Positions 519 through 21,418 of a DNA stretch of 64,000 nucleotides are shown one piece after another. This DNA is from an uncultured Pseudomonadota bacterium. GTDB taxonomy: Bacteria > Myxococcota_A > Polyangia > Fen-1088. The notes beneath the pieces were generated by a model that made no database searches, was not told the DNA's origin, and saw only the letters and a program-made list of their open reading frames with translations. How positions within the stretch are numbered: position 1 is the first letter of the stretch; each line of letters starts with the position of its first letter. The stretch spans positions 64,812-128,811 of the forward strand of contig CAWHRJ010000004.1 in the NCBI GenBank assembly GCA_963831685.1, read 5' to 3'. Made by a program: the position numbers and the translations under genes.

Positions 519-545
519 CGCCCCCGCTGCATTCAAGGAGCACGC

Positions 546-1547: not shown

Positions 1548-1572
1548 TCGGGAATTCGCAGGACCTGCACCA

Positions 1573-2982: not shown

Positions 2983-4010
2983 GCGCCAACATGAGCGACG
3001 TTCAAATTCCTGCCGAGTCGGCCCCCCGGCCCGTTGCCTCGCTGGCTTCGGCCACGCGCCTCGGGCGGATGAAGAAAGAGCTGACCATGCTGGCCGTGAT
3101 GATCGGCCTCGGGGGTCTCACCGCCCTGCTCAACCCGGTCTTCCTGAGCCCCGACAATCTCCGCAATACCGTCCGGCACATCTCGCTCATCTCTCTGTTC
3201 GCGCTGGGCGAGGCGGTGGTGATCATCGCGGGGGGCATCGACTTGTCCGTCGGCTCGATCATCTGCATCTCGGCGGTCACCACCAGCTACCTCACCATGT
3301 ACGCCGGTTTCGGGATCGGTGCGGCCGTCACCGCCGCGATCGCGCTCTCGCTGCTGGTGGGCCTCGGGCAGGGGCTGGTGATCACCTGGCTGGGCGTCCA
3401 GCCGTTCGTGGTGACGCTGGGCTCGATGCTGCTGCTGCGCGGGGTCGCCGAAGTCCTGACCGGCGGCACCGACATCGGGTTTCAGGGCCAGTTCCCCCGG
3501 TTCCGTTTCCTGGGGGAAGGGGTCGGCCTCGGCATGCCGATGCCGTTCTGGTTCGCGCTCGCGGCCATCGTGGTCACGGCATTCCTGATGCACCGAACCC
3601 TGTTCGGGCGCTACTGCTACGCGATCGGATCGAATGCCGAAGCCGCCCGACTGTCCGGGGTTCCCGTGCAGTGGGTACGCCTCGTCACCTTCGTCGCCAG
3701 TGCCGGCCTGTCCGGCGTCGCGGGGATCCTGTACGTCGCGTATCTGCCCAGCGCCACACCGTCGCTCGGCTCGGCCTACGAGCTGCACGCCGTGGCCGCC
3801 GCGGTGCTCGGCGGCTGCTCGCTGCTGGGCGGGCGCGGCTCGGTCTTCGGCGTCCTCATCGGCGCCGGCATCATGCAGATCACCTTCAACGCCGTGAACC
3901 TGGTCGGCAAATCGCTGTGGCAGAACGTGGTCGCGGGCGGGGTCATCCTGGCCGCTGTCATCGTCGACCGCGTCTTCGAAAAGAACGCCTCCCGGCGTCG
4001 AGTCAAATGA
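2979..4010 (+). CDS. sugar ABC transporter permease (RbsC-like)
   Basis: In-frame ATG at 2979 overlaps the upstream stop (ATGA). Multi-pass hydrophobic protein. The part of the 2724 ORF upstream of 2979 is Arg/Gly-rich out-of-gene translation. Confidence 0.85.
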   Translation: MSANMSDVQIPAESAPRPVASLASATRLGRMKKELTMLAVMIGLGGLTALLNPVFLSPDNLRNTVRHISLISLFALGEAVVIIAGGIDLSVGSIICISAVTTSYLTMYAGFGIGAAVTAAIALSLLVGLGQGLVITWLGVQPFVVTLGSMLLLRGVAEVLTGGTDIGFQGQFPRFRFLGEGVGLGMPMPFWFALAAIVVTAFLMHRTLFGRYCYAIGSNAEAARLSGVPVQWVRLVTFVASAGLSGVAGILYVAYLPSATPSLGSAYELHAVAAAVLGGCSLLGGRGSVFGVLIGAGIMQITFNAVNLVGKSLWQNVVAGGVILAAVIVDRVFEKNASRRRVK

Positions 4011-5008
4011 GCATGCCATCCAAGACATCCCGCATCCTGGTCACCGGCGCCACCGGCAAGGTGGGTCAGACGTTCATCGCCCGACTGCTTGCCGATCCTC
4101 AGTTCTCGCGGTTCACCGTCCGGGCTCTCTGCCACAACCGAACGCTGGAGGTCGGCCCGCGGTTGGAGGTGGTCAGGGGGTCGATCGAGGATCGCAGCGT
4201 CGCAGAGCGCGCGGTCGCGGACGTGAGCCACGTGCTGCACCTGGCGACCAGTAAGGAGACGCCAGAGTCGATCATGGACGTGGCGATCAAGGGAATGTTC
4301 TGGCTGCTGGAGGCCTGCCGGACCAGCCCGTCCTTTGAACAATTCATCCTGATCGGCGGCGACGCCGGGATGGGGCACTTCTTTTACCCGCACCCGATCC
4401 CGGTCACCGAGACCCAGAAGCACAGCGCTTACCCGGGCTGCTACGCCCTGTCCAAGGTCCTCGAGGAGGTGATGCTGGAGCAGGTGATGATCCAGTACGA
4501 CCTCAACGGCTGCTGTTTACGCGCGCCCTGGATCATGGAGAAGGACGACTTCAAGTATCAGCTCTCGTTCGGCGAGGACGTTTTCGGCGGCCCGCGCTGG
4601 CGCGATCTGGTCGGCGCCCAGGCGGCGGACGACTACGTCAAGAGCGGCGCCGTCCCGATCATGCTCGATCCCGACGGACGTCCCGTGAAGCGCAATTTCG
4701 TGCACGTCGACGACCTGATCTCGGCCATCCTGCGCGCCATCGACCACCCGGCGGCGGGCCGCCAGACCTTCAACATCTGCATGGACGAACCCGTCGATTA
4801 CGGCGAGCTGGCCGCCTACCTGCGGGAGACCCGCGGCGCAGAGGGGATTCCCATTGCCACGCCGTACCGCTCGACGTGGCTCGACAACACCAAGGCCAAG
4901 TTCCTGCTGGGCTGGCGGCCACGTTACGACCTCGAGCAAATGGTCGAGGCGGCTTGGGGCTATCAGCGTGCAGCCGACGATCCGCGAAAGGTGTGGTACC
5001 CGGGTTGA
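4007..5008 (+). CDS. NAD-dependent epimerase/dehydratase (extended SDR)
   Basis: ATG 4007 overlaps the permease stop (ATGA). Has the N-terminal Rossmann motif VTGATGKVG and the catalytic YxxxK (YALSK). Confidence 0.8.
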   Translation: MSMPSKTSRILVTGATGKVGQTFIARLLADPQFSRFTVRALCHNRTLEVGPRLEVVRGSIEDRSVAERAVADVSHVLHLATSKETPESIMDVAIKGMFWLLEACRTSPSFEQFILIGGDAGMGHFFYPHPIPVTETQKHSAYPGCYALSKVLEEVMLEQVMIQYDLNGCCLRAPWIMEKDDFKYQLSFGEDVFGGPRWRDLVGAQAADDYVKSGAVPIMLDPDGRPVKRNFVHVDDLISAILRAIDHPAAGRQTFNICMDEPVDYGELAAYLRETRGAEGIPIATPYRSTWLDNTKAKFLLGWRPRYDLEQMVEAAWGYQRAADDPRKVWYPG

Positions 5009-5022
5009 CTTCGCTTCCGCAC

Positions 5023-6228
<1,206 letters not shown>

Positions 6229-6488
6229 CGGTGGTCTAGGGCTTCGGCCTGCCATTCCAGGGGATCTCCCGCCCACTGGAAAGCTGCACGCCCACATTTA
6301 CCCACCCTTGCTGTGCTTGACGTCTCGACCAGCAAAGAAAACAGAGCAACACATGCCCGTTCGAGGCAGTAGTTGTGTGGGATCTGGCCAGTTTTGGTGC
6401 CGGACTTGAAAAAGGTAACTTTGTTTAATAATTATCTGGCCGGCACATCTCGAAGTGAGATACTGACGATCTGGAATCGGAGGGCAGT

Positions 6489-8411
6489 ATGAGGGCCACG
6501 TTCCGTCTTGGTTTTTTCGCGGCAGCGGCGTTAATCGGCGCCGCCGGTTGTCAAGGCAAGATCAACGATCAAACCGGGTCCGGCGGGTCCTCGCAAACCG
6601 GGTCCGGCGGGTCCTCGCAGTCCGGGTCCGGCGGGTCCTCGCAGTCCGGGTCAACGGCGGGTCCTCACAGTCCGGTCAACGGCGGGTCCTCACAGTCCGG
6701 GTCCGGCGGGTCCTCGCAGTCCGGGAACGGCGGGTCGTCGACCGGCAGCGGCGGGTCCTCGACCGGCAGCGGCGGGAGCACCACGGCGTGCGTCCCACTC
6801 ACCCCACTTCCCCAGCGGCTCTGGCGGTTGTCTGTCGAGCAGTGGGATGCCGCCGTGCAGACCCTGCTCGCGCTGAAGACGGCTCCGATCCTGACCAGCC
6901 GCGGCGGCGAACAGCCCTTTGCGTTCTTCAGCGACGCCTCGCTCGGCGTCGACGCCCCAATGCAATATGACATGTACGGCCGAGCGGAAGACGTCCTGAC
7001 GACGATCGACTCCACCGTGACCACGTCGATCGCGCCCTGCACCGGAACGACCGCCTCGGCGCAGACCACCTGCGCGAACAATTGGGTGTCCACCTTCGCC
7101 CAGAAGGCCTATCGGCGCCCTCTGGACACGAGCGAGGTGACCAACCTGATGAAGGTCTACGCCCAGGGGGCGATGCAGGACTACAAGACGGGCATCAAGC
7201 TGATGATCGAGGCCATCATCATCTCGCCGTCCTTCGTTTATCGAACGGAGCTCGGTCCGCCGGCGACCGCGGACGCGAGCGGGAAATACCCGGACACCAC
7301 CCTCACGCCCTACGAGGTCGCCAGCCAGCTGGCGTTCACGTTGCTGGGTACGTTGCCCGACGACGCTCTGACCACGGCCGCCGCCAACGGCAGCCTGGGA
7401 ACGACCTCGGGCCTCCAGACGCAAATCGATCGATTGCTGGGACTGTCCGCGGTCCAGGCCAACCTGACGAACATCGTGCTCGGCTGGTTCAACATCAAGC
7501 AAGTGTTCTCGAAGCAAAAGGACACGTCGCTCCTCTCGGCCCTGTCCACGACCGAACAGGACATGACGGGGCTCCAGAACGATCTCTACACGTCGACCCA
7601 GCAGTGGGTGAACAGCATCCTCTGGAGCGGATCTGGAAAGATCGACGACCTCCTCACCTCCCAGGGCGTCTACGTCAACCAGCGATTGGCCACGCTCTAT
7701 CCGGGCCTGACGTACTCCGGGGGGAAGGCGCCGACCAGTGATTCCACCTTCGTGGCGGCGACCTTCCCGGCGTCGCAGGGGCGCAGCGGCATGCTCACCC
7801 AGCCCAGCTTCCTCTGGGCTGCCTCGGATCCGTCGGTGAATTCCATCGTGAAGCGCGGGTTGGGGATCCACGACAACGTGATTTGCCAGGACGCGCTGGG
7901 CTCTCCGGTCGACCTGTCCACCCCGATGGCCATGGCCGTCACCGCCTGCGAGAATCCTTCTGTCTCCAACCCGACGCCCGACTCGACCTGCGACAGCGAG
8001 ATCCTCAAGTCGAACGCCCGGCTGGCCTACCAGCCCTGCAAGAACTGCCACTCCCAGATGGACCCCTACGCGCGGGTGCTTCAAAACTTCGGACCCATCG
8101 GTAACTACCGAACCGTGGACGAGGCGGGGCGGTCCATCGATCCGAGCGGCACGTTCGTACCGACGTCGCCGCTCGCGGGGATGACCGTCAGCGGCGCTCA
8201 GGGCCTCGCAAGCGCCGTGGTGTCGTCGGGCGTCCTGGACGGCTGCTCGGTCCAGCAGATGACCAACTACGGGATGGGCTCGGCAATTCAAAAGTACGAT
8301 ACCTGCGAGCTCGACACGATCCGGGGTCAGACGGACGGCACCATCAAGTCCTTGTTCCGCAATGTGCTCCTCGCCAGTTTCATGCGCGCACGCACCGGAG
8401 GTATGAAGTGA
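6489..8411 (+). CDS. DUF1592/DUF1588/DUF1585-type secreted lipoprotein (planctomycete PSD-like family)
   Basis: Lipobox GAAGC and a GSGGSSQ repeat linker. Also RLWRLSVEQWDAAV (DUF1587/1595-like), FAQKAYRRPLD (DUF1592-like), TQPSFLWAAS..IVKRG (DUF1588-like) and CKNCHSQMDPYARVLQNFGPIG (DUF1585-like CxxCH). RBS GGAGG lies 6 nt upstream. Confidence 0.85.
   Translation: MRATFRLGFFAAAALIGAAGCQGKINDQTGSGGSSQTGSGGSSQSGSGGSSQSGSTAGPHSPVNGGSSQSGSGGSSQSGNGGSSTGSGGSSTGSGGSTTACVPLTPLPQRLWRLSVEQWDAAVQTLLALKTAPILTSRGGEQPFAFFSDASLGVDAPMQYDMYGRAEDVLTTIDSTVTTSIAPCTGTTASAQTTCANNWVSTFAQKAYRRPLDTSEVTNLMKVYAQGAMQDYKTGIKLMIEAIIISPSFVYRTELGPPATADASGKYPDTTLTPYEVASQLAFTLLGTLPDDALTTAAANGSLGTTSGLQTQIDRLLGLSAVQANLTNIVLGWFNIKQVFSKQKDTSLLSALSTTEQDMTGLQNDLYTSTQQWVNSILWSGSGKIDDLLTSQGVYVNQRLATLYPGLTYSGGKAPTSDSTFVAATFPASQGRSGMLTQPSFLWAASDPSVNSIVKRGLGIHDNVICQDALGSPVDLSTPMAMAVTACENPSVSNPTPDSTCDSEILKSNARLAYQPCKNCHSQMDPYARVLQNFGPIGNYRTVDEAGRSIDPSGTFVPTSPLAGMTVSGAQGLASAVVSSGVLDGCSVQQMTNYGMGSAIQKYDTCELDTIRGQTDGTIKSLFRNVLLASFMRARTGGMK
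6570..6782 (+). repeat. about 9 tandem copies of a 24-nt unit (caRWccgggtccggcgggtcctcg) encoding GSGGSSQ(S/T)
   Basis: Units read directly: 6570, 6594, 6618, 6642 (26 nt), 6668 (25 nt), 6693, 6717, 6741 (21 nt), 6762 (21 nt). Confidence 0.9.
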
Positions 8412-9982
8412 TTTCCTACAAGTTTGCTCGTCGCTCTTTCCTTCGCGGTCTGGGCGGGTCGGCGGCGATGATGGTTCCGCTGCTGCGCTCCATCGAGGCT
8501 CGCGCCGCCGGTGTCACCGCCCCTTTGCGGTTCTTGGTCATCCACCACCCGCTGGGGACGGCGTCGGGGCTCGCCAACTGGCGTCCGAACGCCAGCGCAA
8601 CCACGACCAACTTCACGCTCCCGGTGGAGAGCGCCCCGTTCCAGCCGCTCCAGAAGTACATGGTGATGGTCGACGGCGTGAACGTCGTCGCGGCGACCAG
8701 CCACTCGAGCGGCGGGACCAGCCCGGACACGAAGGGCGGCGGTCAGAATACGCATGAGGGCGGAATGGTCGCCATCATGACCGGGGTGCCGACCATCGGC
8801 ATGGTGGGGCAGGAGGATCACTGCGCCGGCGGTCCTTCGATCGATCAGATCCTCCTGCAACAGTCGGCCGGGCTCGGCGGGCCGGCCTTTGCGAAGCCGA
8901 CACCTTTTCCGTCACTGCAGCTGGCTGCCGACATCCGCTCCGATCGGGACGAGAAGGCGCCTCGGGTGTTGTCGTACCTGGCTCCCAAGAGCGGCGTGAG
9001 CGATCCGGACCAGGCTCGCCAGCCGCTCTATCCCGATACCTCACCGCTCGCCGTGTTCAACCGGATCTTCGGGGGTTCTCTGCCTACCGGAACGAACACA
9101 GCGCAGCTGCTGGCGCAAAAAGAGAGCGTCATCACCTACCTGAAGAGCGACTTGGCTCGCCTGCAGACATTGGTGCCGGCCAGCGAAAAGGACAGGATCA
9201 CGGCGCACACCGACGCGATCGCGCAGCTCGAGGCGAGCATTCAGCAGATGTACGGCATGACGACGCAGACATCGGTGTGCAGCAAGCCCAGCGCGCCCCC
9301 CGATTACTCGAATACCAGCTCCGGTAAACAGGGCTCGGGCTCCGTCTACAGCGACCTCGGTGGCGTCGATTACTACGTCCCCAATCAGCCCAGCAGCCAC
9401 CCGCACATCGATCTCGGCCAGACGCAGCTGAGATTGATCAAGGCGGCATTCCTGTGCGATCTGACCCGGGTCGCGACCTTCATGTGGTCGGCAGGAACCA
9501 ACTGGGTGGTGTTCCCGGGCACGTTCCAGGGGGCCACGATCGCCGGCAACCCCCAGTCCAGCCCCCACCATCCCCCCAGCCACTCCGGCGACGCCGCGAC
9601 GAACGGTTGGCTGAATCAGATCGACCAGCTCTACTCCTCCGCGACCTCCACCGTGCTGCAGGAGTTCGCCACGACGCCCGACATCGACGGGAACATGCTG
9701 CTCGACAACACGGTGGTCGTGTACCTGACCGAGGTCGCGCGCGCCTCCGATCACAACCAGCAGAACATGCCGCTGTTGATTTTTGGTGGGAAGAACACCA
9801 GGGTGAAGGGCGGCACGTACCTGAAGGTCACCGGCGGCTCTCTGAGCGCCCAGACGGGCGGCTCGGGAAACAGGCCGTTCAACGACGTCTGGTTGGCCCT
9901 GGCGCCGGTCTTTGGCGTGACCATGAACAGCCTAGGTGCCCAGAGCCAGTACACGGGCCCGCTTTCGGGCATCTTTTCCTAG
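8408..9982 (+). CDS. DUF1552 domain protein with twin-arginine signal
   Basis: GTG start overlaps the upstream stop (GTGA). Has a Tat-like RRSFLRGLGG and DLTRVATFMWSAG. This is the canonical partner of DUF1592 proteins. Confidence 0.85.
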   Translation: MISYKFARRSFLRGLGGSAAMMVPLLRSIEARAAGVTAPLRFLVIHHPLGTASGLANWRPNASATTTNFTLPVESAPFQPLQKYMVMVDGVNVVAATSHSSGGTSPDTKGGGQNTHEGGMVAIMTGVPTIGMVGQEDHCAGGPSIDQILLQQSAGLGGPAFAKPTPFPSLQLAADIRSDRDEKAPRVLSYLAPKSGVSDPDQARQPLYPDTSPLAVFNRIFGGSLPTGTNTAQLLAQKESVITYLKSDLARLQTLVPASEKDRITAHTDAIAQLEASIQQMYGMTTQTSVCSKPSAPPDYSNTSSGKQGSGSVYSDLGGVDYYVPNQPSSHPHIDLGQTQLRLIKAAFLCDLTRVATFMWSAGTNWVVFPGTFQGATIAGNPQSSPHHPPSHSGDAATNGWLNQIDQLYSSATSTVLQEFATTPDIDGNMLLDNTVVVYLTEVARASDHNQQNMPLLIFGGKNTRVKGGTYLKVTGGSLSAQTGGSGNRPFNDVWLALAPVFGVTMNSLGAQSQYTGPLSGIFS

Positions 9983-10021
9983 CCATACCTGACAGGCCAC
10001 CCCCGATAAGGAGCATTGTTT

Positions 10022-10696
10022 ATGAGGACTGGTTCCCTCTGTGCAGGCGTGGGCCTGACGCTGCTGTCGATGTTCGCGATCTCTTGTTCCAGCAACGACA
10101 TGATGCCGACGACCGGCACGGGCGGAAGCGGGGGGGGTACGGGAGGCGGGACGGGAGGCGGGACGGGAGGCGGCAGCGGGGGATCATCGGCAGCGGGCAT
10201 CTGCGGGACGCTCATGAACTATGCGCCCACCACCAGCACCGCCCCGTCCTTTGCGACGGACATTTACCCGATCTTGAGCAACACGGATCCGGGCACGTCC
10301 GACGCCCCGGCACCAGGATGCGGGCAGACGATGATTTGTCATGGGAACCCGCCGGCCCCCATCAACATGGACGGGACCATCTTCCAGTCGTTTGTCGATC
10401 CGCCGGCCACGGTGAAGACGGGCTTGCTGAGCAATGCGGTCAACGCCCCCTCGATGAAGCGGGTGGACCCCGGGCACGTCGGGACCAGCTTCCTGGCGTA
10501 CAAGATCTCCGGCGCCGACGGCGTCGCCTGCGTGTCGTCGGCCTGTCCCCCGAACACGACCGTTGGGAATACCCAGCCCTGCGGCGATCCGATGCCCAAT
10601 CAGAACGGCCACGGCGTCGGGCCGGGGGCGGCGGCGCTCACCGACGCGGAACGTTCGAAGATCCTCGACTGGATTGCGCTGGGCGCTCACGATTGA
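10022..10696 (+). CDS. lipoprotein with Gly-rich linker and PSCyt-like (planctomycete cytochrome c-like) domain, CX5CH variant
   Basis: AAGGAG RBS 8 nt before ATG 10022 (the track ORF starts at TTG 10016). Has a lipobox-like ISCSS, a GTGGG repeat linker, YPIL...GCGQTMICHG, and a C-terminal ILDWIALGA. Confidence 0.65.
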   Translation: MRTGSLCAGVGLTLLSMFAISCSSNDMMPTTGTGGSGGGTGGGTGGGTGGGSGGSSAAGICGTLMNYAPTTSTAPSFATDIYPILSNTDPGTSDAPAPGCGQTMICHGNPPAPINMDGTIFQSFVDPPATVKTGLLSNAVNAPSMKRVDPGHVGTSFLAYKISGADGVACVSSACPPNTTVGNTQPCGDPMPNQNGHGVGPGAAALTDAERSKILDWIALGAHD

Positions 10697-10700
10697 CCCG

Positions 10701-11282
10701 ATGCGGCTGATCCAGATCGACGATGTGATCCCGCAGCCGTATCAGGACCAGCTCGAGGCGGAGACGTCTGCCGTCGGTTGGTTTTTTCATAAAGAGACCG
10801 CCCGGCCCGGGCTGGGCTTCGCCCGCAATTACCCGGGATTCTTCCACATGGCCTTCGACGCCGCCTCGCCGGTGGCGGTCACCTCGAACATCAACGCGCT
10901 CTTGGTACCGCTCCTGTTCGTGTCGATGGACAAGGCCAAGTTGAAGTTGAACGACCTCATCCGGGTTCGCCTGGGCATGTTCCCCCAGACGCCGCTGGAC
11001 GTTCCGTATCACAACCCGCACGTCGACTTTTACGATCCCCACCTGGTCGGCCTTTACTACGTCAATGATTCCGACGGCGACACCGTCGTTTTCAACGAGA
11101 CCTCTGACCAGGTGGGGCTCGAACAATCCGCGGCCTACGCCAACCAGGGCAAGTTCACCGAGCTGGCGAGGATCACCCCCAAGAAAGGTCGGATGGTGTT
11201 CTTCGACGGAAGGCACTACCACGCCAGCATGCACCCCAGGTCGCACGCCCAGCGAATTGTGGTCACCTTCAACTTTCGGTAG
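10701..11282 (+). CDS. 2OG-Fe(II) oxygenase superfamily protein
   Basis: ATG lies 4 nt after the upstream stop. Has an HxD motif (HNPHVDF), a distal His (HYHASMHP) and a downstream Arg (RIVVTFNF), consistent with a 2-His-1-carboxylate facial triad plus a 2OG-binding Arg. Confidence 0.6.
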   Translation: MRLIQIDDVIPQPYQDQLEAETSAVGWFFHKETARPGLGFARNYPGFFHMAFDAASPVAVTSNINALLVPLLFVSMDKAKLKLNDLIRVRLGMFPQTPLDVPYHNPHVDFYDPHLVGLYYVNDSDGDTVVFNETSDQVGLEQSAAYANQGKFTELARITPKKGRMVFFDGRHYHASMHPRSHAQRIVVTFNFR

Positions 11283-11312
11283 CCCGACCCACCTCTAGGC
11301 TGAATCGAGCCG

Positions 11313-12650
11313 ATGCCTTTCACGCCCGCCATGGCCGCTGGACTGCGGTGCCCCCGCTGCACCGAGGGAGGAGCGCTGGACCTTGTCGCCAATTCGTTGC
11401 GGTGCCAGACGTGCCAGACGCGGTACCCGTTCGTCGGGACGATCCCCTGCTTGGTGCCGGATCCGCCGCTGTGGCATGCGCTGTGGTTGAATCGGTTGGC
11501 GGAGTTCGTTTCCGATACGCAGGCGACGCTGGCGGAGTGGCGAGCTGCGGCCGACACGCGAGAGAGCCAGCCCCGCACGCGCGCCCGGATCGATCGCGTC
11601 ATCGCCGCTTGCGAAGACCAGCGCGCCCGCGTGGAGGCGCTGTTCGAGGACCTGAGGCAGGGACAGCCCCAGCTTCTGCCCACCCGCCCAGAGTCGGGCA
11701 CCAACCCACTGCTCGAGTTCTCGGAGAATCTCTTTCGCGACTGGGTCTGGGGCGATAGAGAGGCCGAGCTGACCCGGGCTCTGGTCGCGAACCTGGTGGA
11801 CCAGCCCGCGGGACGCCTGGCCGTTTACGGGGCCGGCGCCGGCCGCCTGGCGGTCGACGTGCACCAGTCGCTGGCGTCTGTCGAGACCTGGGCGCTGGAT
11901 CTGAACCCGCTGCCGTTCCTGGTCGGCGAGCGTCTGGTTCGGGGCGAGACCGTGACGCTTCCCGAGTTTCCCGTCGCGCCGCATGGCGAGCGAGACGTGG
12001 TCCTCGAGCGCGAGCTTCGCTGCCCATTTCCGGTGCGGGAGGGGTTCGCCTTCGCGTTCGCGGACGCCTTGCGGCCCCCCTTCGCGCCGGCCTCGCTGGA
12101 CACCGTGTTGACCGCCTGGTTCATCGACGCCACCGGCCGGGACTTTCGGGAGACCGCCGCCGCGGTGAACCGCGTCCTTCGGCCGGGCGGGCTGTGGGTG
12201 AATTTGGGGCCACTGCGCTTCAAAGAGAGCCTGGCCCAGAACTACACCATCGAAGAGATCTGGGACCTGGTCGCGTCCAGCGCATTCGACCTAAGTAAGC
12301 GGGGCCGCGACGACCTCCCGTATTTCGATTCGCCCGTGAGCGGCTCGCGCCGCATCGAGACCGTTTTCTGGTTCGCTGCCCGTAAGTCCGGCGAGGCGGA
12401 GACTTTCCTGTCGTCCGACGACACGCCCCCCTGGATTGCCGACGCCAGCTTGCCGATTCCGATGACGCCAGCGTTGGTCGCCTTCGGACGAAAGTCCGTG
12501 TTTGCCGGCAGCGTCATCTCGTTGATCGACGGCGCCCGGTCCTTGTCGGAGGTGGCCGACGAGATGGGACGCCTCTGGGGGTTCGATTCGGCACGGATCC
12601 TGGACCAACTCCGCGCGTTCTTCGCCACGTTGCCGCTGGACGGCGCATGA
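11313..12650 (+). CDS. SAM-dependent methyltransferase (N2227-like) with N-terminal Zn-ribbon and C-terminal PqqD-like segment
   Basis: CPRC...CQTC ribbon, motif I VYGAGAGRLAVD, an N2227-like block VLTAWFIDATGRDF...VLRPGGLWVNLGPLRF, and a tail SLIDGARSLSEVADEMGRLWGFDSARILDQLRAFFATL. Confidence 0.7.
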   Translation: MPFTPAMAAGLRCPRCTEGGALDLVANSLRCQTCQTRYPFVGTIPCLVPDPPLWHALWLNRLAEFVSDTQATLAEWRAAADTRESQPRTRARIDRVIAACEDQRARVEALFEDLRQGQPQLLPTRPESGTNPLLEFSENLFRDWVWGDREAELTRALVANLVDQPAGRLAVYGAGAGRLAVDVHQSLASVETWALDLNPLPFLVGERLVRGETVTLPEFPVAPHGERDVVLERELRCPFPVREGFAFAFADALRPPFAPASLDTVLTAWFIDATGRDFRETAAAVNRVLRPGGLWVNLGPLRFKESLAQNYTIEEIWDLVASSAFDLSKRGRDDLPYFDSPVSGSRRIETVFWFAARKSGEAETFLSSDDTPPWIADASLPIPMTPALVAFGRKSVFAGSVISLIDGARSLSEVADEMGRLWGFDSARILDQLRAFFATLPLDGA

Positions 12651-13069
12651 GCTCTCGGGCTGACAGCGGCTGCCGGGGGAATGGACCGATTCGCGCCATG
12701 TTCTTGCCGAGGCTCGCAGCGCTGAGCGCGGTGGCCGCCTTGCTGGCGGGAGGGTGCTTGGGCTCGACGGACGACAGGCCGGCCAAGTGGTCCTTCATCT
12801 CGGCGATGATCACCGAACCGAGCTGCGCGACCGTGAACTGTCACTCCCAGATCAGCCAGCGCGCCGGGGTGGATCTGCACGCGCGCGAGATCGGCTACTA
12901 CACGCTGAAGAACGGCTTCTACGTAATCCCGAACGACAGCGCCGATTCGTCGCTGATCTACCTGCTGAATGCGTCCGGATCACTTCGGATGCCGCCCGAC
13001 AATCCTCTGCCAACCGCCGACGTCGTTCTAATCGAGAAGTGGATCGACGACGGCGCGGCCAACGACTGA
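12647..13069 (+). CDS. small PSCyt-like lipoprotein, CX4CH variant
   Basis: ATG overlaps the upstream stop (ATGA). Has lipobox LAGGC, CATVNCH, RMPP, and a C-terminal LIEKWIDDGAAND. Confidence 0.65.
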   Translation: MSSRADSGCRGNGPIRAMFLPRLAALSAVAALLAGGCLGSTDDRPAKWSFISAMITEPSCATVNCHSQISQRAGVDLHAREIGYYTLKNGFYVIPNDSADSSLIYLLNASGSLRMPPDNPLPTADVVLIEKWIDDGAAND

Positions 13070-13081
13070 TTGCGGAGAGAG

Positions 13082-14251
13082 ATGCGACGACGGGTCCTCT
13101 ATGCGGTCGCGGGATGGCTCTTTCTGATGGGCGGGCGGGCGATGGCGTATCCCCAGTTTCAGTTCAGCTCGGGGACCACCCGCTGCAGCCAGTGCCACTA
13201 CGATCCGGCCGGCGGCGGGCTCATCACCGCGTGGGGGCGTGACGAATCAGGCGACACGATCAGCTTGGGCGGCGACGGCGGCTTTGCCCACGGCGCCTGG
13301 ACGCCCCCTTCGTGGCTGGCGCTGGGCGCCGACGTCCGCCTGGCGGCGTTGTACAACGACTCGGGCGGGCCCCAAGGGGTCGAGCTCGACGCGTTTCCCA
13401 TGCAGGCGGACGGGTATGCGCGGTTCGCCTTCACCCAGCAACTGTCCCTGTACGTCCAGGGGGGCTTCCGCGGCGATACGCGGCCGGCGGACGCATCGGT
13501 GGGCGGGCGGTTCAGCACGCTCGGCGATCGGGTGATCTCGAACGAGCACTATCTAATGTGGAAACCGGGGGGCACCGGGCCCTACCTGCGGGCCGGGCGG
13601 TTCTTCACGCCTTACGGCCTGCGGTTCGTCGAGCACATCTACTGGGTCCAGCGCTACACCGGCTACGACCTCTACAACGAGACGTACAACCTGTCCGGGG
13701 GGCTCCTCGAAGAGGAGTGGGACCTGCACGTCTCCGCGTTCACACCTCCCCCCGAGAGCTTCCCCGACGCTTTGCAGTCGGTCGGCCGGCGCGAAAGCGG
13801 CGCGGCCGCCTACGCCGAGAAGCGGTGGGACGGGACCGCGATGCTGGCCCTGCAGGCACGGCTCGGGTTCGGCAGCGAGGTCAACCGGTATCAGGGCGGG
13901 GCCGTCGGCAAGCTGTGGCTGGAGAAGGGGAGGGCGCTGCTGCTGGGTGAGGCGGACGTTATCCGCGCCGTTGTCAGCGCGGCGTCCGCCGGCGAGACCC
14001 AGCTGGTGACGTACCTGGGCATCGACCTCGTCCCCAAACGCGGCTGGATGCTGGGTCTTGCGCACGAGCTTTATCAGGAAGACATCTCCGTGAAGGGGAC
14101 CTCGCACGACGCCTTCGATCTGGAGGTAAACTTCTTCCCCTGGTCGCACTTCGAGCTGCTGGCCTTCGGGCGATATCAATTCACGGGGACGGGCGGCACG
14201 GGCGAACCGTCCGCCTCGATGTTCATGCTGCAGCTCCATTACTACCTGTGA
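13082..14251 (+). CDS. outer-membrane beta-barrel-like protein with N-terminal CxxCH motif (paralog of 55333-56520)
   Basis: Signal peptide ending AMA, then CSQCHYDPAGGGLITAWGRDESGDT. Has alternating beta-strand-like composition and the terminal LQLHYYL. Shares MQAD, LRAGRFxxPYGLRxxEH and LLGEAD with the paralog. An alternative TTG start lies at 13070. Confidence 0.7.
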   Translation: MRRRVLYAVAGWLFLMGGRAMAYPQFQFSSGTTRCSQCHYDPAGGGLITAWGRDESGDTISLGGDGGFAHGAWTPPSWLALGADVRLAALYNDSGGPQGVELDAFPMQADGYARFAFTQQLSLYVQGGFRGDTRPADASVGGRFSTLGDRVISNEHYLMWKPGGTGPYLRAGRFFTPYGLRFVEHIYWVQRYTGYDLYNETYNLSGGLLEEEWDLHVSAFTPPPESFPDALQSVGRRESGAAAYAEKRWDGTAMLALQARLGFGSEVNRYQGGAVGKLWLEKGRALLLGEADVIRAVVSAASAGETQLVTYLGIDLVPKRGWMLGLAHELYQEDISVKGTSHDAFDLEVNFFPWSHFELLAFGRYQFTGTGGTGEPSASMFMLQLHYYL

Positions 14252-14802
14252 GACATCCCATGCGCGCACCTCAGCTCTCCCCAATGCTGTCGGCTCTGGC
14301 GAGCGCCGTGGCAGTTGTCGGGCTCGCGTCGTGCTCGACGACCGTCGCCACCGCCCCGGCAGAGCCCGCCTATGACGTAGACGTGCGCCCGATCCTGATG
14401 GTCCACTGCGCCCGTTGTCACGGGGCGGGCGGCTCTCTCAACGTCCCCACCGAGCCGACGGGACCGGACGCGGCGGTGCTGCCCGGCATCCGGACCCTCG
14501 CCGCCATGTTCCGGTCGTATCGATGTTTCCTGGATAGGTATCCGGAGGACAACGGCCAGTGCGGGTTGGATGGCGGCGCGCGTTCGGCGAGCTGCCAGCT
14601 CGGCGCGCTCTATTGGGCGAAACTCCATTCCATCAGCGCGACGATTGACCAGACCAGCGGTCCGACGCAGATGCCGCCACCCCCGGCGCAGGCGCTCAAC
14701 GACTGGGAAAAGCAGGTCCTCCGCAACTGGGAGGAGAACCCGATCTGCTCGAACTCGCCGAACCCGGATACGACCATCTGTCCGCCCGGCTCGGGCCCCT
14801 GA
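14248..14802 (+). CDS. small CxxCH lipoprotein (PSCyt-like)
   Basis: GTG 14248 overlaps the barrel stop (alternative ATG at 14260). Has lipobox GLASC, RPILMVHCARCHG, QMPPPP and LNDWEKQVLRNWEE. Confidence 0.65.
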   Translation: MRHPMRAPQLSPMLSALASAVAVVGLASCSTTVATAPAEPAYDVDVRPILMVHCARCHGAGGSLNVPTEPTGPDAAVLPGIRTLAAMFRSYRCFLDRYPEDNGQCGLDGGARSASCQLGALYWAKLHSISATIDQTSGPTQMPPPPAQALNDWEKQVLRNWEENPICSNSPNPDTTICPPGSGP

Positions 14803-14830
14803 TATCAACGCGTTGGAATTGGGCGCCCGG

Positions 14831-14853
14831 CCGGGCCCTGCGGGTCCTGCCGG
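14831..14853 (+). repeat. 23-nt GC-rich element ccgggccctgcgggtcctgccgg; direct repeat of 16571-16593
   Basis: 22 of 23 positions are identical to the second copy, in the same orientation. Contains a GGGCCC-tgc-GGGYCC palindrome. Confidence 0.8.
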
Positions 14854-14877
14854 AACGTCGCCACCTATACCGGAACG

Positions 14878-15177
14878 GTGACGGCCTCCGTCGCTACATC
14901 GGAGACGGCAACCCTCTCGCTGGGTGAGGCGGGCTTCAGTATAAGTCCGACGGAGATGGAGACCGACACCACGACCAACGTCAACGGCTGGACGGTGACG
15001 TTCCAGTCCGCATTTGCGGCGACGGTGCAAAGCTCGATCGGGGTCGAGGGTATGCTAGCGGACGATCATCCTACCGCCGACCTTCCGGCCGTCTTCGTCT
15101 TCCAGGACACGGCGTTCGGCACTTTCAGGGCGATGGACGCCGCGCCTCGGAAGCGAAGCTGCCCATCGCACCCGTGA
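14878..15177 (+). CDS. hypothetical ORF (possibly a gene fragment)
   Basis: 99-codon GTG ORF with a moderate G/C third-position bias. No recognisable motif, signal peptide or RBS. Confidence 0.25.
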   Translation: MTASVATSETATLSLGEAGFSISPTEMETDTTTNVNGWTVTFQSAFAATVQSSIGVEGMLADDHPTADLPAVFVFQDTAFGTFRAMDAAPRKRSCPSHP

Positions 15178-15200
15178 TGTTCGGGATCGTCGGGGAGGTC

Positions 15201-16334
15201 TTATCGGACAGAGAACCGGTAGATCGTCGTCTGCGTGTAGCGCTGCCCGGGCCGGAGGGTGGCGCTGGGGAAGGTGGGGTGGTTGGGCGCGTCGGGGAAG
15301 CGCTGCGCTTCGAGGCAGAGCGCCCCCCGGCGCCCGTACGCAACGCCCCCCTTGCCGTGGATGGTGCCGTCGAGGAAGTTGCCCGAGTAGAACTGCAGCC
15401 CCGGCTGGTCGGTGAGGACCTGCATGACGATGCCGCTACGGGCGTCGTAGACCTCGGCGACTTGTCGGAGCCGTCCCCGCGTGCCCCGCAGCACCCAGTT
15501 GTGGTCGTAGCCCTTGCCGAGGACCAGCTGCGGGTCGGCGGCGTCGATGCGCGCGCCGATCTTGATGGGCTGGCGGAAGTCGAGCGGCGTCCCTTTGACG
15601 TCGGCCAGCTTCCCGGTCGGAATGAGGCCCGCGCCCACGGCGGTCGTCTGATCGGCGTCGAGGGTCAGCTCTTCGTCGAGGATCGTCTGCGACGGGTCAC
15701 CGCTGAGGTTGAAGTACGAGTGGTGCGTCGGGTTGAGGATGGTCGGCTTGTCGGTCGCGCCGCGGTAGTCGACGCGGAGGGCGTCGTCGCGCGTGAGCGT
15801 GTAGGTCACGGTCAGCGTCACCTTGCCCGGATAGCCGTCCTCGCCGTCCGGGCTCACATAGGTGAGCGCGACGCCGGGTCCGTCCTTGCCCTTGACCAGC
15901 TTCGCCTGCCAGAGCTTCTTGTAGAAGCCGCCCGCGCCGCCGTGCAGGTGGTTGGGGCCGTCGTTCAGATCGAGCTGATACGTCTTTCCGTCGAGTGTGA
16001 ACTTGCCGGCGGCGATGCGGTTCGCGTAGCGGCCGACGGTGGCGCCGAGGAACACCTTGTCCTTCACGTAGCCGGCGAGATCGTCGTAACCGAGCACGAC
16101 GTCGCGCAACGTCCCCGCGCGGTCCGGTACCTTCAGCGACACGACGATGGCGCCGTAGTCGATGATCTTCACCTCGGCGCCGGACGGGTTGGTGAGGGTG
16201 AAGAGGTTGACCTGGCGCCCGTCCTCGAGCGTGCCGAACGGCGTCTCGGCGACCGCGGGTGCGGCCTTCTTGCTCGCCCGCGCGATGAGCGGAAGCGCGG
16301 CGACGAGCACCAGCGTGAATGCGATCGTTCTCAT
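15201..16334 (-). CDS. galM: aldose 1-epimerase (galactose mutarotase), secreted
   Basis: Motifs LHGGAGGF, THHSYFNLSG and CLEAQRFPD. Signal peptide MRTIAFTLVLVAALPLIARA. The track ORF extends to 16364; the ATG at 16334 fits the signal peptide better. Confidence 0.9.
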   Translation of the reverse strand: MRTIAFTLVLVAALPLIARASKKAAPAVAETPFGTLEDGRQVNLFTLTNPSGAEVKIIDYGAIVVSLKVPDRAGTLRDVVLGYDDLAGYVKDKVFLGATVGRYANRIAAGKFTLDGKTYQLDLNDGPNHLHGGAGGFYKKLWQAKLVKGKDGPGVALTYVSPDGEDGYPGKVTLTVTYTLTRDDALRVDYRGATDKPTILNPTHHSYFNLSGDPSQTILDEELTLDADQTTAVGAGLIPTGKLADVKGTPLDFRQPIKIGARIDAADPQLVLGKGYDHNWVLRGTRGRLRQVAEVYDARSGIVMQVLTDQPGLQFYSGNFLDGTIHGKGGVAYGRRGALCLEAQRFPDAPNHPTFPSATLRPGQRYTQTTIYRFSVR

Positions 16335-16570
16335 GGTCTCGGCAAGGTCCTTTGCGCCACGCATACAAGGGAACAGTCTGCCGCGTCAATTCCTGTTATG
16401 GGACCCGTGCTGGCTACATCAGCCATCCGGAATCGCCAGGGATCACGCGGCCCTTCGGTAGTCGTGATTACAGAAGGTCCCCGTCGTGTCGATGCTGTCG
16501 AAACCGCAACAGGGCTGGCCCTTGCCACCGCACGCTTGGGGCGCTCCGTCAACCCCTCCCCCTGCCTTTC

Positions 16571-16594: not shown

Positions 16595-17917
16595 TCACGA
16601 ACCACTGGGCCAGACGATCTGGATTCCGTTGACCGGAGCGCGCGTCTGCGGGCCGGTTCCGGGGGTTGCCGTCAAGGTGAACGACGCTCCGGTCACTCTG
16701 CGGAAGATGACGTAGTTGCCGGACCCGCCCGAGGGTGCCAGCGTGTACCCGGGAAAGGTGGTCGACGTCGTCGGCCCGGTCTGCGAAACGGTCACGGTGG
16801 TGGTGCCAATCGCGTACTGGTACGTGCGCGTTACGCTCTGCGGGATATCGCCGAAGCAGTAAACGTACACGTCGTAGCCGTTCGCAATTGCCGCGGGCAG
16901 CCCGCTGACCTTGACCGTCGCGGGGGATGCAGCCGCCGACGGATCGAGGTACCCGTTCATCATTCGCGTGTCGCCGGGCGCGTCCGTGAAGATGTTGCTC
17001 CAGTCACCCAAATTTGTGCCCACGGCCGGTGAGTTCCAGGTGACCGTCGCGGCCGTCGCGCTGCCGTTCGACTGATGCAGATTGGCGAGCGTTCCCATGA
17101 CGCTGCCGGCGCCGTTCCAGTTCATGACCGGCTTGACGCCGGCGGTCTCCGTGGGGCCCATCGCGGGGTCGGGGACGTCTGCCCCTCCGGCGGTCGCGGG
17201 GCGGCCGCCGACGAAATCAATGCTGATGATGACCGGGCCGCTGCCGGCCGATCCGCCCTGGCCCGCGGTCCCGCCGGCACCGCCCTGGCCGCCGCGGCCA
17301 GCCGCGCCGCCGGTGCCCGCCCCTCCGGTTCCGCCACCGCTGCCGCCGGTGGACACACCGCCCGTGCCGCCAGAGCCACCACCGGTCCCCTGGCCACCGG
17401 TCCCCGCACCGCCGGTACCCACACCGCCGGCCCCGCCGCCGGTACCCGCACCGCCGGTCCCGCCGCCGGTGCCCGCACCGCCGGTCCCGCCGCCGGTGCC
17501 CAGGCCGCCGGTACCCGCGCCGCCGGTACCCGCACCGCCGGTCCCGCCGCCGGTACCCGCACCGCCGGTCCCGCCGCCGGTGCCCAGGCCGCCGGTACCC
17601 GCACCGCCGGTACCCGCACCGCCGGTCCCGCCGCCGGTGCCCAGGCCGCCGCCGCTCGCGCCAGATCCACCGCTGCCTTTCCCGCCCGAACCACCGCTGG
17701 CGGCGCCTCCCGAACCCGACAGTTGTCCGCCCGTGCCAGACCCGCCGCTGCCGCCGGCACCACCGCTGTGACCTCCGGTCAGCGATGAACCCCCGTCCGA
17801 CAACGAGTCGCCGGGAGCCTCCATGCCGCGATTGGCGCAGGCACCGAAACCGACGACGGGCGCGATCAGCAGCACCGTTGCGAAGCAGTGGCAGAACGAG
17901 GTCTTCATCGGGGGCAT
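16595..17917 (-). CDS. secreted lipoprotein with long GTGGx pentapeptide repeat linker and C-terminal globular domain of unknown function
   Basis: Signal peptide with lipobox (GFGAC). About 180 aa of GTGG(A/L/G/S) repeats, then about 210 aa of non-repetitive beta-rich sequence. Confidence 0.75.
   Translation of the reverse strand: MPPMKTSFCHCFATVLLIAPVVGFGACANRGMEAPGDSLSDGGSSLTGGHSGGAGGSGGSGTGGQLSGSGGAASGGSGGKGSGGSGASGGGLGTGGGTGGAGTGGAGTGGLGTGGGTGGAGTGGGTGGAGTGGAGTGGLGTGGGTGGAGTGGGTGGAGTGGGAGGVGTGGAGTGGQGTGGGSGGTGGVSTGGSGGGTGGAGTGGAAGRGGQGGAGGTAGQGGSAGSGPVIISIDFVGGRPATAGGADVPDPAMGPTETAGVKPVMNWNGAGSVMGTLANLHQSNGSATAATVTWNSPAVGTNLGDWSNIFTDAPGDTRMMNGYLDPSAAASPATVKVSGLPAAIANGYDVYVYCFGDIPQSVTRTYQYAIGTTTVTVSQTGPTTSTTFPGYTLAPSGGSGNYVIFRRVTGASFTLTATPGTGPQTRAPVNGIQIVWPSGS
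17233..17782 (-). repeat. coding 15-nt periodic repeat (GTGGx) with a higher-order unit of about 90 nt
   Basis: ggtacccgcaccgccggtcccgccgccggtgcccaggccgcc... recurs almost exactly (around 17481 and around 17566). Confidence 0.8.
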
Positions 17918-18269
17918 CCTGGCGCGAACCGCCGCCGAATCGCCGGTGACGGATCGCCGGTCTGAAAACGTCGGGCCGACGTATCTCCGTGTCGGGCCGG
18001 GCAGACCGGCGTGCTTTAGGAAACTATCTTAACATTTGCGGGTGAGACCTGTCCAGCGGCCGCTGTTGATAACGAATGTTGCGAATGTTTTGGTGGCGCC
18101 TCTCCTGGAGGAATCACGGAACGCCCCAATCTCGGCCAATGACGCGGTGAGACCAGCATCTTGAACGGCGTGTCCTGCACAATAAGCGGGCGGTCTCGGC
18201 AGTTAGGTACGACGGCACTCGCGCGTTCCGACCACGCGGGAAGTCGTCCAGCCCACCTGGAGAGAACCG

Positions 18270-20411: not shown

Positions 20412-20423
20412 TCCTGGCCGGAG

Positions 20424-21182: not shown

Positions 21183-21418
21183 CGGAGCAATGATATCTCG
21201 ACGGCGTCGCTCCAGAGATGCTTTGCGGGCGGTGGGGACCGCTAACCGAGATTCCGAGTAACGTCGCGACAGCCGACAAGTGCCCGGCCCTGCGGCCGCG
21301 GGCCGGACGGCCCCAGGATGAGTGCGCTACGGCTGGAGGCGCCCGGGAGTCCGTCCCCGAGATCCCCTGTCGATCCCCTGATGCTGCTTTTTCAGCAGCC
21401 TGCTAGAAGGGGCTCCGG

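Follow-up and report, generated by a model that had tools for sequence, protein, structure and literature searches.

A Polyangia DUF1592/DUF1552 gene pair with cytoplasmic accessory enzymes, joined to a porin cassette

Does a run of eight closely packed genes in an uncultured member of the Polyangia (Myxococcota) encode one multi-compartment system, or has it been put together from separate parts? The genes, here g1 to g8, lie at 6489-14802 on the forward strand of the window, by which we mean the whole 64,000-nucleotide stretch of contig CAWHRJ010000004.1 (assembly GCA_963831685.1) that was analysed, and at their head stands a DUF1592/DUF1552 gene pair. An earlier note, made from the sequence alone, had described them as one operon coupling this pair to protein-modifying enzymes and to an outer-membrane module. 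The listing of open reading frames (ORFs), together with codon-position GC analysis, bore out the eight co-directional genes and their coordinates: GC at the third codon position is 0.83-0.88 in each ORF, against 0.36-0.62 at the second, the pattern of genuine genes, in a window of 65-72% GC from a genome of 68% GC. We find that the cluster is a Myxococcota subfamily of a known gene pair with cytoplasmic accessory enzymes, here also joined to a porin cassette. It very probably represents a lineage-specific joining of two cassettes, A (g1-g5, 6489-12650) and B (g6-g8, about 12698-14802).

Two cassettes and their junction

The comparison with relatives carries this conclusion. A scan of 185,579 species genomes with back-translated g5 yielded 13 loci, the close ones in metagenome-assembled genomes of Polyangia. 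By blastn, collinearity of the window with loci L003, L005 and L007 begins at about position 1300 and runs as far as the g5 stop, breaking off at 12629-12645; it also stops at the g5 stop in L034-L037 and L116-L119. What comes after g5 varies. Metagenome contigs with a DUF1552 protein 93% identical to g2 run from an aldose epimerase through a sugar ABC transporter, GalE and GalK to g1-g5 and, after a gap of 209 nt, into unrelated genes; where contigs carry a methyltransferase with 87% identity to g5, a convergent GFO/IDH/MocA gene comes next, and in P0248 g1-g5 are likewise followed by unrelated genes. Synteny thus breaks past g5, where at least three different contexts follow, while g1-g5 stays intact. 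Positions 12691-14793, for their part, match a free-standing three-gene unit elsewhere in the same relatives, with g7 orthologs 84-87% identical (g7 scan and blastn). The cassettes lie on separate contigs in JBJMQQ (contig 33 and contig 46) and in CAVTSM (contig_13235 and contig_1268), and at least ten genomes hold both on different contigs or 80-120 kb apart. The claim that the eight genes form one conserved unit was therefore not borne out: collinearity ends at the g5 stop, and g6-g8 are found elsewhere in relatives. The junction between the cassettes (12651-12697) is homologous to neither set of relatives, and around g6-g8 a repeat search revealed neither direct nor inverted flanking repeats, nor any mark of a mobile element.

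The usual surroundings of cassette B were surveyed through its barrel gene, g7; a profile scan gave 80 loci, which other loci in hand brought to 86. An aminotransferase-PMT_2-PMT_2 context lies upstream in 39 of these, and 84 have no methyltransferase within 10 kb, the exceptions being L001 and L033. Besides L033, only L059 has a DUF1552-like gene within 10 kb. The barrel cassette adjoins the methyltransferase cluster in three independent arrangements, those of the window, of L001, where a different barrel paralog (65% identical) lies upstream of g3-g4-g5, and of L033. About 14 genomes hold both cassettes, and a rough estimate, with each genome taken to have one to three copies of the barrel and distances counted in windows of 20 kb, gives fewer than 0.1 such adjacencies expected by chance. 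We read the barrel cassette as a facultative neighbour; because three adjacencies were seen, it may have a loose functional link to the methyltransferase cluster, though we regard such a link as doubtful.

Inside the cluster the spacing is as tight as the earlier note had said, except that the largest gap becomes 47 nt rather than 39 nt once the starts are revised; the revised spacers of -4 to 47 nt are operon-like. Of the three 4-nt overlaps that it had reported, that between the g1 stop and the g2 start is genuine (GTGA at 8408-8411, with GGAGG 8 nt upstream), whereas the other two are probably artefacts of taking the longest ORF. The longest ORF of g3 begins at a TTG at 10016, and AAGGAG precedes the ATG at 10022. 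For g6, whose longest ORF begins at 12647, we place the start at the ATG at 12698, since eight homologs all keep this methionine and homologous DNA in relatives sets in at 12691; g5 and g6 are then 47 nt apart. To judge from the sequence, the start of g7 is most likely the ATG at 13082, behind GGAGAG (longest ORF from a TTG at 13070), and that of g8 the ATG at 14260 (longest ORF from a GTG at 14248).

Across positions 6000-15400 the sole promoter-like site on the forward strand is the candidate listed in Table 1, and chance also predicts one. It lies where GC falls to about 0.5, in the 260-nt gap before g1, and GGAGG stands 7 nt upstream of the g1 ATG. Terminator-like matches are at chance level in the cluster region (4 found, 4.9 expected), a search of Rfam revealed neither a riboswitch nor a leader RNA in 6000-15400, and cassette B in the window is without an evident promoter of its own. 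Since the spacers do not exceed 47 nt and no terminator signal rises above chance, g1-g8 are predicted to be read, probably, as a single transcript in this genome. A GC-rich hairpin past g8, found by folding, is a possible end of the transcription unit; beyond it a convergent aldose 1-epimerase gene occupies 15201-16364 on the reverse strand (Pfam Aldose_epim, 6.3e-97). The earlier note had let its proposal stand or fall with internal promoters or terminators and with synteny in related genomes: no such internal signals were found, and synteny is conserved for five genes only.

Table 1. Positions of the eight genes and of the associated signals in the window
Feature	Positions	Strand	Description	Basis
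Promoter candidate	6406..6435	+	sigma-70-like, TTGAAA-18-AATTAT	in 260-nt lower-GC gap between galactokinase gene and g1
g1	6489..8411	+	lipoprotein: Gly/Ser-rich linker, PSD5-PSD4(DUF1592)-PSCyt3-PSD2, one CxxCH (C517KNCH)	Pfam, motif, orthologs
g2	8408..9982	+	DUF1552 (HXXSHH) protein with twin-arginine signal ARRSFLRG	Pfam 5.8e-42
g3	10022..10696	+	small lipoprotein: Gly-rich linker, invariant C-x5-CH, C-terminal MP...WIALGA	alignment A8
g4	10701..11282	+	predicted cytoplasmic 2OG-Fe(II) oxygenase, intact HxD...H...R	Pfam PF13759, PF13640
g5	11313..12650	+	predicted cytoplasmic methyltransferase: Trm112-like Zn ribbon (CPRC...CQTC), CARME/N2227 (GAGAGR, FRDWVWGD), PqqD-like tail (DGxRS)	Pfam, profiles
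Cassette junction	12651..12697		cassette A homology ends by 12645, cassette B homology begins 12691; weak fold	
g6	12698..13069	+	PSCyt1 lipoprotein, invariant C-x4-CH (CATVNCH)	Pfam PSCyt1, 27.6 bits (cut-off 22)
g7	13082..14251	+	outer-membrane porin-like 16-strand beta-barrel (model), signal peptide	AlphaFold, Foldseek
g8	14260..14802	+	lipoprotein, CxxCH (CARCH), PSCyt1-like MPPP...W motif	motif
Hairpin	14827..14853	+	GC-rich, 11 bp, no T tract; 25 nt past g8 stop	ViennaRNA fold

A methyltransferase kept with exported proteins

Pairs of PSCyt3-PSD and DUF1552 genes are conserved in Planctomycetes and Verrucomicrobia and their function is unknown (PMC5615132), in agreement with the earlier note, which had called DUF1592/DUF1552 pairs a combination with no assigned function. 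By its domains, adjacency, twin-arginine translocation (Tat) motif and CxxCH, g1-g2 is a predicted pair of this PSCyt3-PSD/HXXSHH kind. It has the same domains and gene order as the planctomycete and verrucomicrobial pairs, and the same CxxCH in PSCyt3, but it occurs in Myxococcota (Polyangia), its subfamily is always found with a CARME-type methyltransferase, and this clade adds a 2-oxoglutarate (2OG) oxygenase and a small lipoprotein. The literature on DUF1552, DUF1592, PSCyt3, HXXSHH, and N2227 with PqqD yielded no functional study and no mention of a methyltransferase link.

In g1 the Pfam matches all exceed their cut-offs, from PSD4/DUF1592 (E 2.7e-24; 86.5 bits, cut-off 23.3) and PSD5 (4.9e-19; 68.9, cut-off 34.2) to PSCyt3 (2e-13; 50.9, cut-off 27) and PSD2 (4e-6; 26.9, cut-off 25.8), and collinear orthologs are present in L003, L005, L007, L034 and L116. 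The HXXSHH score of g2 is 144.8 bits (cut-off 30). Pfam's TAT_signal model matches g2 weakly (E 0.079), and the residues of the RR-x-FL motif (R8, R9, F11, L12) are conserved in at least 90% of 26 homologs. The PSD/PSCyt3 gene directly precedes the DUF1552 gene on the same strand, an order kept in all Myxococcota relatives. The AlphaFold model of g2 is poor, with a predicted local distance difference test (pLDDT) of 57, and its 50 best matches in the PDB by Foldseek, all from the alkaline-phosphatase superfamily (sulfatases, MCR-1, LtaS, iPGM), are weak (E 3e-3 to 0.3, TM about 0.3); g2 probably has the fold of that superfamily, and the modelled likeness is a hint on fold class only. PDB sequence and profile searches gave nothing usable for g2 or for the DUF1552 subfamily alignment A3. 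Variants of the pair occur in L008, where tandem DUF1552 duplicates, 74% and 70% identical to g2, lie between the DUF1592 gene and the methyltransferase at 6024-9303 with the 2OG oxygenase inverted, and a second, distant DUF1592/DUF1552 pair without methyltransferase lies at 18051-21211.

The gene that sets this subfamily apart, g5, is by its family score and motifs a predicted member of the CARME family, formerly N2227. It scores 37.4 bits against a cut-off of 27, and the S-adenosylmethionine-binding motifs are intact, with invariant G175, G177 and R178 (GxGxG) and the acidic D196 and D251. A profile of its family matches human CARNMT1 (5yf0, E 2.3e-13) over positions 61-337, the RDW motif region included. 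At its N terminus the same profile matches the small zinc ribbons of the Trm112/UPF0434 type (2kpi, 7e-4), and at its C terminus PqqD chains (5sxy, 0.01; 5vrd, 0.089; 3g2b, 0.11). Precomputed matches to PF05402 exist for the homologs P0318 (a faint one), P0340, P0342 and P0346, and matches to PF03966 for homologs as well; JGI names some of them 'N2227-like' or 'YbaR (Trm112 family)'. An exhaustive phmmer search placed 392 representative clusters (50% identity) at E<=1e-30, most of them aligned over positions about 10-440, and because these matches are so many and mostly full length, the predicted combination of zinc ribbon, CARME domain and PqqD-like domain is a sizeable unnamed family. No signal peptide was found on g5 or g4.

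To see what travels with this enzyme, we took a census of species-representative genomes with a profile (motif FRDWVWGD, alignment A1), which gave 26 loci, 27 with L006; neighbours were identified by local phmmer of window proteins against six-frame ORFs and, for those without a known family, by Pfam. A PSD-type protein and a Tat-signal protein of about 500 amino acids are adjacent or within 10 kb in 24 of the 27 loci. These 24 come from Myxococcota, Gammaproteobacteria and Bdellovibrionota and are variously collinear, divergent or 7 kb apart. In the window clade the order is g1-g2-[g3]-g4-g5; in other Myxococcota (L020, L022, L023, L024) it is g1-g2-methyltransferase, without g3 and the oxygenase; within 10 kb, L009 and L021 hold methyltransferase and oxygenase together with the pair in inverted orientation; and pair and methyltransferase diverge in L011 and in the metagenome contig L120. 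P0318 is a further case of methyltransferase with PSD and Tat genes. By our own estimate, which assumes perhaps ten pairs per 10-Mb genome, a random gene would lie within 10 kb of such a pair about 2% of the time. The variety of gene orders speaks against simple inheritance of a single arrangement, and the conserved link of cassette A is that of the methyltransferase with a PSD-type lipoprotein and a Tat protein.

Outside the Myxococcota the partners change while their types are kept. Nine Pseudomonadales/Azotimanducaceae loci and L010 encode proteins of 415 aa (weak PSD2), 817 aa (Laminin_G_3) and 540 aa (twin-arginine) and then the methyltransferase. The 540-aa protein belongs to no Pfam family, has the motifs GGYDYHG and FSDG, and appears to represent an undescribed Tat family. 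We considered that this family (A5) might be a relative of DUF1552 (A3) and rejected the idea: hhalign aligned the signal region only, at a probability of 1%, BLASTP found nothing, and neither DUF1501 nor DUF1552 matched the Tat proteins of 540 and 530 aa in a lenient Pfam scan. PDB sequence and profile searches with A5 were equally without usable result. The four-gene unit, for example at 4618-11395 of L012 and also in L026-L032 and L010, precedes the housekeeping genes lpxC and dus. The 530-aa protein comes from L033 (Bacteriovoracaceae), where the methyltransferase, a barrel homolog, two PSCyt1-like lipoproteins and a trio of 979, 530 and 415 aa lie within 11 kb; the barrel homolog, with the motif AYP.F...C..CH.P.G.G, and the two lipoproteins stand between the methyltransferase and the PSD/Tat genes.

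The coupling of the DUF1592/DUF1552 pair to cytoplasmic enzymes, as put forward in the earlier note, thus holds for the methyltransferase, in three phyla, but not for a hydroxylase/methyltransferase pair, since the oxygenase is missing at many loci. As for the compartments involved, the note fairly pictured cytoplasmic enzymes beside exported proteins. In none of the lineages does the methyltransferase have a conserved small ORF as its neighbour; in L020, L022, L024 and at the gammaproteobacterial loci it is the Tat gene that abuts it. When six-frame ORFs from around the methyltransferase were clustered all against all, the result was too noisy, in DNA of such high GC, to bring out further conserved partners.

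What the methyltransferase may act on

What, then, might g5 do beside an exported pair? The reading that we favour, though only tentatively, is that g5, here with g4, acts on the Tat-exported partner in the cytoplasm and modifies it ahead of export. In this scheme the core of cassette A would comprise a periplasmic pair, namely the PSD/PSCyt3 lipoprotein g1, whose CxxCH is a single haem-type motif, and the Tat-exported g2, together with the cytoplasmic methyltransferase g5. As Tat substrates fold in the cytoplasm, g2 would be within reach of cytoplasmic enzymes, and as no precursor-peptide gene is conserved, the neighbouring Tat protein would be the most economical client of the PqqD-like tail. 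Before g2 leaves the cytoplasm, that tail would bind a segment of its peptide chain and the CARME-type domain would methylate one of its side chains, by analogy with CARNMT1 a histidine nitrogen. A second modification, a hydroxyl, would come from the 2OG oxygenase g4 in the window clade. The modified g2 would then be exported folded by Tat and work with g1, and g3, in the periplasm. The periplasmic substrate would probably be derived from carbohydrate, as suggested by genes for galactose, aldose and fucose that surround the cluster in several Polyangia, by the lectin-type Laminin_G_3 domain of the gammaproteobacterial partner and by the association of PSCyt genes with carbohydrate-binding modules (PMC5615132).

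Parts of this scheme can be compared with known systems. Bacterial g5 shares the catalytic domain of the eukaryotic enzyme CARNMT1 and differs from it in the N-terminal Trm112-like zinc ribbon, the putative C-terminal PqqD-like domain and the exported proteins encoded next to it. Sulfatases with a dedicated maturase (FGE or anSME) are exported enzymes of the alkaline-phosphatase superfamily whose side chain is modified by a cytoplasmic enzyme. By this analogy, the nearest in function, g2 and g5 may work similarly, with the modifier encoded adjacent, although the chemistry would be methylation and hydroxylation rather than formylglycine formation and the fold assignment of g2 is weak. CARNMT1 itself methylates histidine N1 both in carnosine and in C3H zinc-finger proteins (PMC10546975, PMC12275196). 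Tailoring enzymes of ribosomally synthesised peptides with post-translational modifications (RiPPs) carry a PqqD-like element (PMC7470986, PMC12710340), and g5 would likewise fuse a putative PqqD-like domain to a modifying enzyme; unlike RiPP systems, it has no precursor-peptide gene beside it, and the presumed client would be a full-length Tat protein of about 500 aa. Carried further, the analogy would make the three-domain enzyme a dedicated cytoplasmic maturase that recognises the full-length Tat substrate as RiPP enzymes recognise leader peptides and methylates the DUF1552 enzyme, with a hydroxyl added by the 2OG oxygenase, before export. This fuller form we regard as speculative and rather unlikely.

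Several observations weigh against modification of the Tat partner. The link from g5 to g2 is a guess from gene neighbourhood, and the founding substrate of the CARME family is a dipeptide, so that a small-molecule role is possible. In the window g5 the PqqD-like tail is weak (TIGR03859, E 0.045, below the cut-off), and both the model of g2 and its PDB matches are poor, as noted above. The methyltransferase occurs without the pair in L013, between murD and ftsW, and in L025, after nadC-nadB-nadA; L001 is too short for the presence of a pair to be judged. At L121 7022-10383 a methyltransferase 50% identical to g5 overlaps the stop of a 659-aa beta-helix-like protein with a Sec signal and no PSD/Tat pair is nearby, although its partner is again a secreted protein. 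Most DUF1552 pairs, for example the second one of L008, are without a methyltransferase, which therefore is not a general maturation factor of the family. Much of the carbohydrate context, moreover, reflects shared ancestry among related Polyangia.

An alternative that takes up some of these points is that g5, with g4, tailors a small molecule or a short RiPP-like peptide, the product being a cofactor or ligand of g2 or unrelated to it. Carnosine, on which the CARME family was defined, is a dipeptide, the profile match to CARNMT1 covers the catalytic domain, PqqD-like domains are typical of RiPP pathways (PMC7470986), and L013, L025 and L121 offer methyltransferases free of the pair. We nevertheless think it improbable, given that neither a small ORF nor any other biosynthetic gene is conserved alongside the methyltransferase across lineages, and that in the loci named above the gene it abuts is the Tat gene.

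The remaining explanations concern the cluster as a whole. That all eight genes serve one multi-compartment system, in which the modified protein is assembled with the lipoproteins and the outer-membrane barrel, would account for their tight co-directional packing free of internal signals, for the barrel cassette beside the methyltransferase in the window, L001 and L033, and for PSCyt1-like small lipoproteins in both cassettes; against the idea, and leading us to hold it unlikely, are the separation of the cassettes in at least ten genomes that have both, PMT_2 as the dominant partner of the barrel cassette (39 of 86 loci), with 84 of 86 lacking a methyltransferase within 10 kb, and the fact that no close relative keeps the eight-gene order. 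If, at the opposite pole, g1/g2, g4/g5 and g6-g8 shared no function and were kept together by descent in one clade, collinearity among close relatives, all of them Polyangia, would not count as independent; yet the PSD and Tat partners of the methyltransferase are kept in three phyla, in varied orders and even with a different Tat family, and synteny past g5 splits into at least three contexts with g1-g5 intact, so that we give descent alone little credence. Hardly credible to us is a chimera at the g5/g6 junction, introduced in the assembly of this metagenome-derived genome. What speaks for it is that the arrangement is unique among the relatives examined and that the exact g5 protein of the window is not on record in other public assemblies. 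But both flanking genes are complete, which makes a real rearrangement the likelier origin of the junction, no shared repeat is present there to mislead an assembler, composition is uniform across it, and L001 shows that such juxtapositions occur in this clade.

The reading in which g5 modifies the Tat-exported partner would have consequences beyond this locus. Few unexplained gene pairs are as abundant in Planctomycetes, Verrucomicrobia and Myxococcota as the PSD/PSCyt-DUF1552 pairs and their sister pairs with DUF1501, and the methyltransferase partner makes the function of the PSD/DUF1552 pair directly testable. If true, a maturase role would be the first functional handle on these 'Planctomycete-specific' systems, would extend CARME-type protein histidine methylation, so far eukaryotic, to bacteria, and would widen the range of PqqD-like recognition beyond short peptides to include a Tat-exported enzyme. 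If the methyltransferase link is one of neighbourhood only, this is an ordinary patch of hypothetical envelope genes. The barrel family, a porin with its own haem-type motif and no Pfam model, merits study in its own right.

Clade-specific genes, the barrel cassette and neighbouring DNA

Two genes of cassette A, g3 and g4, are clade-specific, optional additions. The former is absent from L005, L006, L008, L011, L020 and L022-L024; homologs of the latter are confined to the window clade, L009 and L021, lie on the opposite strand in L006 and L008, and are lacking in L011, L020, L022-L024 and all gammaproteobacterial methyltransferase loci. The domain calls of the earlier note were nearly all right, g3 being the exception: its PSCyt-like label reflects a resemblance of motif only (YPIL...C-x5-CH...MP...WIxxGA, as in PSCyt1), and no Pfam or NCBIfam family matches it. 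Homology between the g3 and g6 families is too weak to call (hhalign E 0.005, probability 7%), and pairwise BLASTP among g3, g6 and g8 gave no significant match. With family matches, an iron triad and a 2OG-binding arginine, g4 is a predicted 2OG-Fe(II) oxygenase. Its scores for PF13759 (2OG-FeII_Oxy_5, 31.6 bits) and PF13640 (2OG-FeII_Oxy_3, 30.2 bits) are just above the cut-off of 27, and H107, D109, H172/H174 and R185 are invariant in five orthologs, the most distant 56% identical; searching the PDB by sequence and by profile gave nothing usable for g4. PSCyt1-like lipoproteins, g3 in cassette A and g6 and g8 in cassette B, could be an element common to the two. The spacing of the haem-type motif is non-canonical and invariant within each family, C-x5-CH in g3 (CGQTMICH) and C-x4-CH in g6; a g6-like lipoprotein of L033 carries CFAGSCH.

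Within cassette B, M18 (the conserved start, in the numbering of the longest ORF), C60, C65 and H66 of g6 are invariant in alignment A4. The g7 protein has no Pfam match and carries the motif CSQCH in an invariant N-terminal segment, AYPQFQFSSGT.RCSQCH..P.GGGL..WGR (C39, C42 and H43 invariant). Its AlphaFold model (pLDDT 68.5; predicted TM-score 0.69), in which the CxxCH segment is of low confidence, matches VhChiP, OmpT, Omp32 and OmpF by Foldseek at E 1e-14 to 1e-10, with target-normalised TM-scores of 0.6-0.7. Among 8000 candidates scored, 854 proteins belong to this barrel family at E<=0.001. In relatives g8 always lies behind the barrel gene; its cytochrome c matches are below cut-off.

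Usually g6-g8 follow an arginine decarboxylase, a class I/II aminotransferase and two PMT_2 (ArnT-like) glycosyltransferases, as PSCyt1 lipoprotein, CxxCH porin and CxxCH lipoprotein, and face a convergent TetR-MFS-RND-OEP efflux cluster (L014-L018, L038, L039, L042 and others; for example L017 5082-11700). In that context cassette B overlaps the upstream PMT_2 gene and therefore seems to depend on upstream promoters.

Porin-cytochrome conduits such as MtrCAB and Pcc combine multihaem partners with a barrel of 20 or more strands. They have been discussed for Verrucomicrobia (PMC5615132), and cassette B shares their layout of lipoprotein cytochrome, barrel and lipoprotein cytochrome. It differs from MtrCAB and Pcc in that g7 is modelled as a 16-strand barrel like the general porins and itself has a CxxCH, and in that each partner has one haem-type motif, spaced C-x4-CH in g6. 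We rejected g6-g8 as a multihaem porin-cytochrome conduit on the strength of the 16-strand barrel and the single motif in each of g6, g7 and g8. A further, speculative possibility is that the CxxCH porin and its two lipoproteins would make up a minimal path of three haems through the outer membrane, one that could be plugged into the pair system.

A second CxxCH-porin paralog lies at 55333-56520 on the forward strand of the window (phmmer E 1e-17 to g7) and has the same N-terminal motif, AYAWMIGHGYAGCAGCHLDPSGAGLL..FGREEAGDT. It directly follows the genes for an extracytoplasmic function (ECF) sigma factor (53627-54292) and a FecR-like anti-sigma factor (54289-55293), a layout that, by analogy with FecI/FecR/outer-membrane-protein systems, hints at a sensing or uptake role for the barrel family. 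A few kb upstream of it, the forward-strand ORF 51674-52516 shows weak likeness to g6 (phmmer 8e-8) and no Pfam match.

Closer to the cluster, the structured, GC-rich spacer at 14803-15200 contains a 99-aa ORF (14878-15177; third-position GC 0.79) that has no family match and is probably non-coding. At 16595-17917 on the reverse strand a 440-aa lipoprotein without a Pfam match has a very long Gly-rich region (GTGG/GSGG), and g1 and g3 bear similar Gly/Ser-rich linkers after the lipobox (for example window 6560-6790). The cluster sits among genes of sugar use: upstream of g1, positions 3-6228 of the forward strand encode an aldose epimerase fragment, a periplasmic sugar-binding protein, an ABC ATPase, a permease, a GalE-like epimerase and galactokinase, and downstream the aldose 1-epimerase gene at 15201-16364, the second of its kind, is followed by a gene for alpha-L-fucosidase at 18270-20411 on the forward strand.

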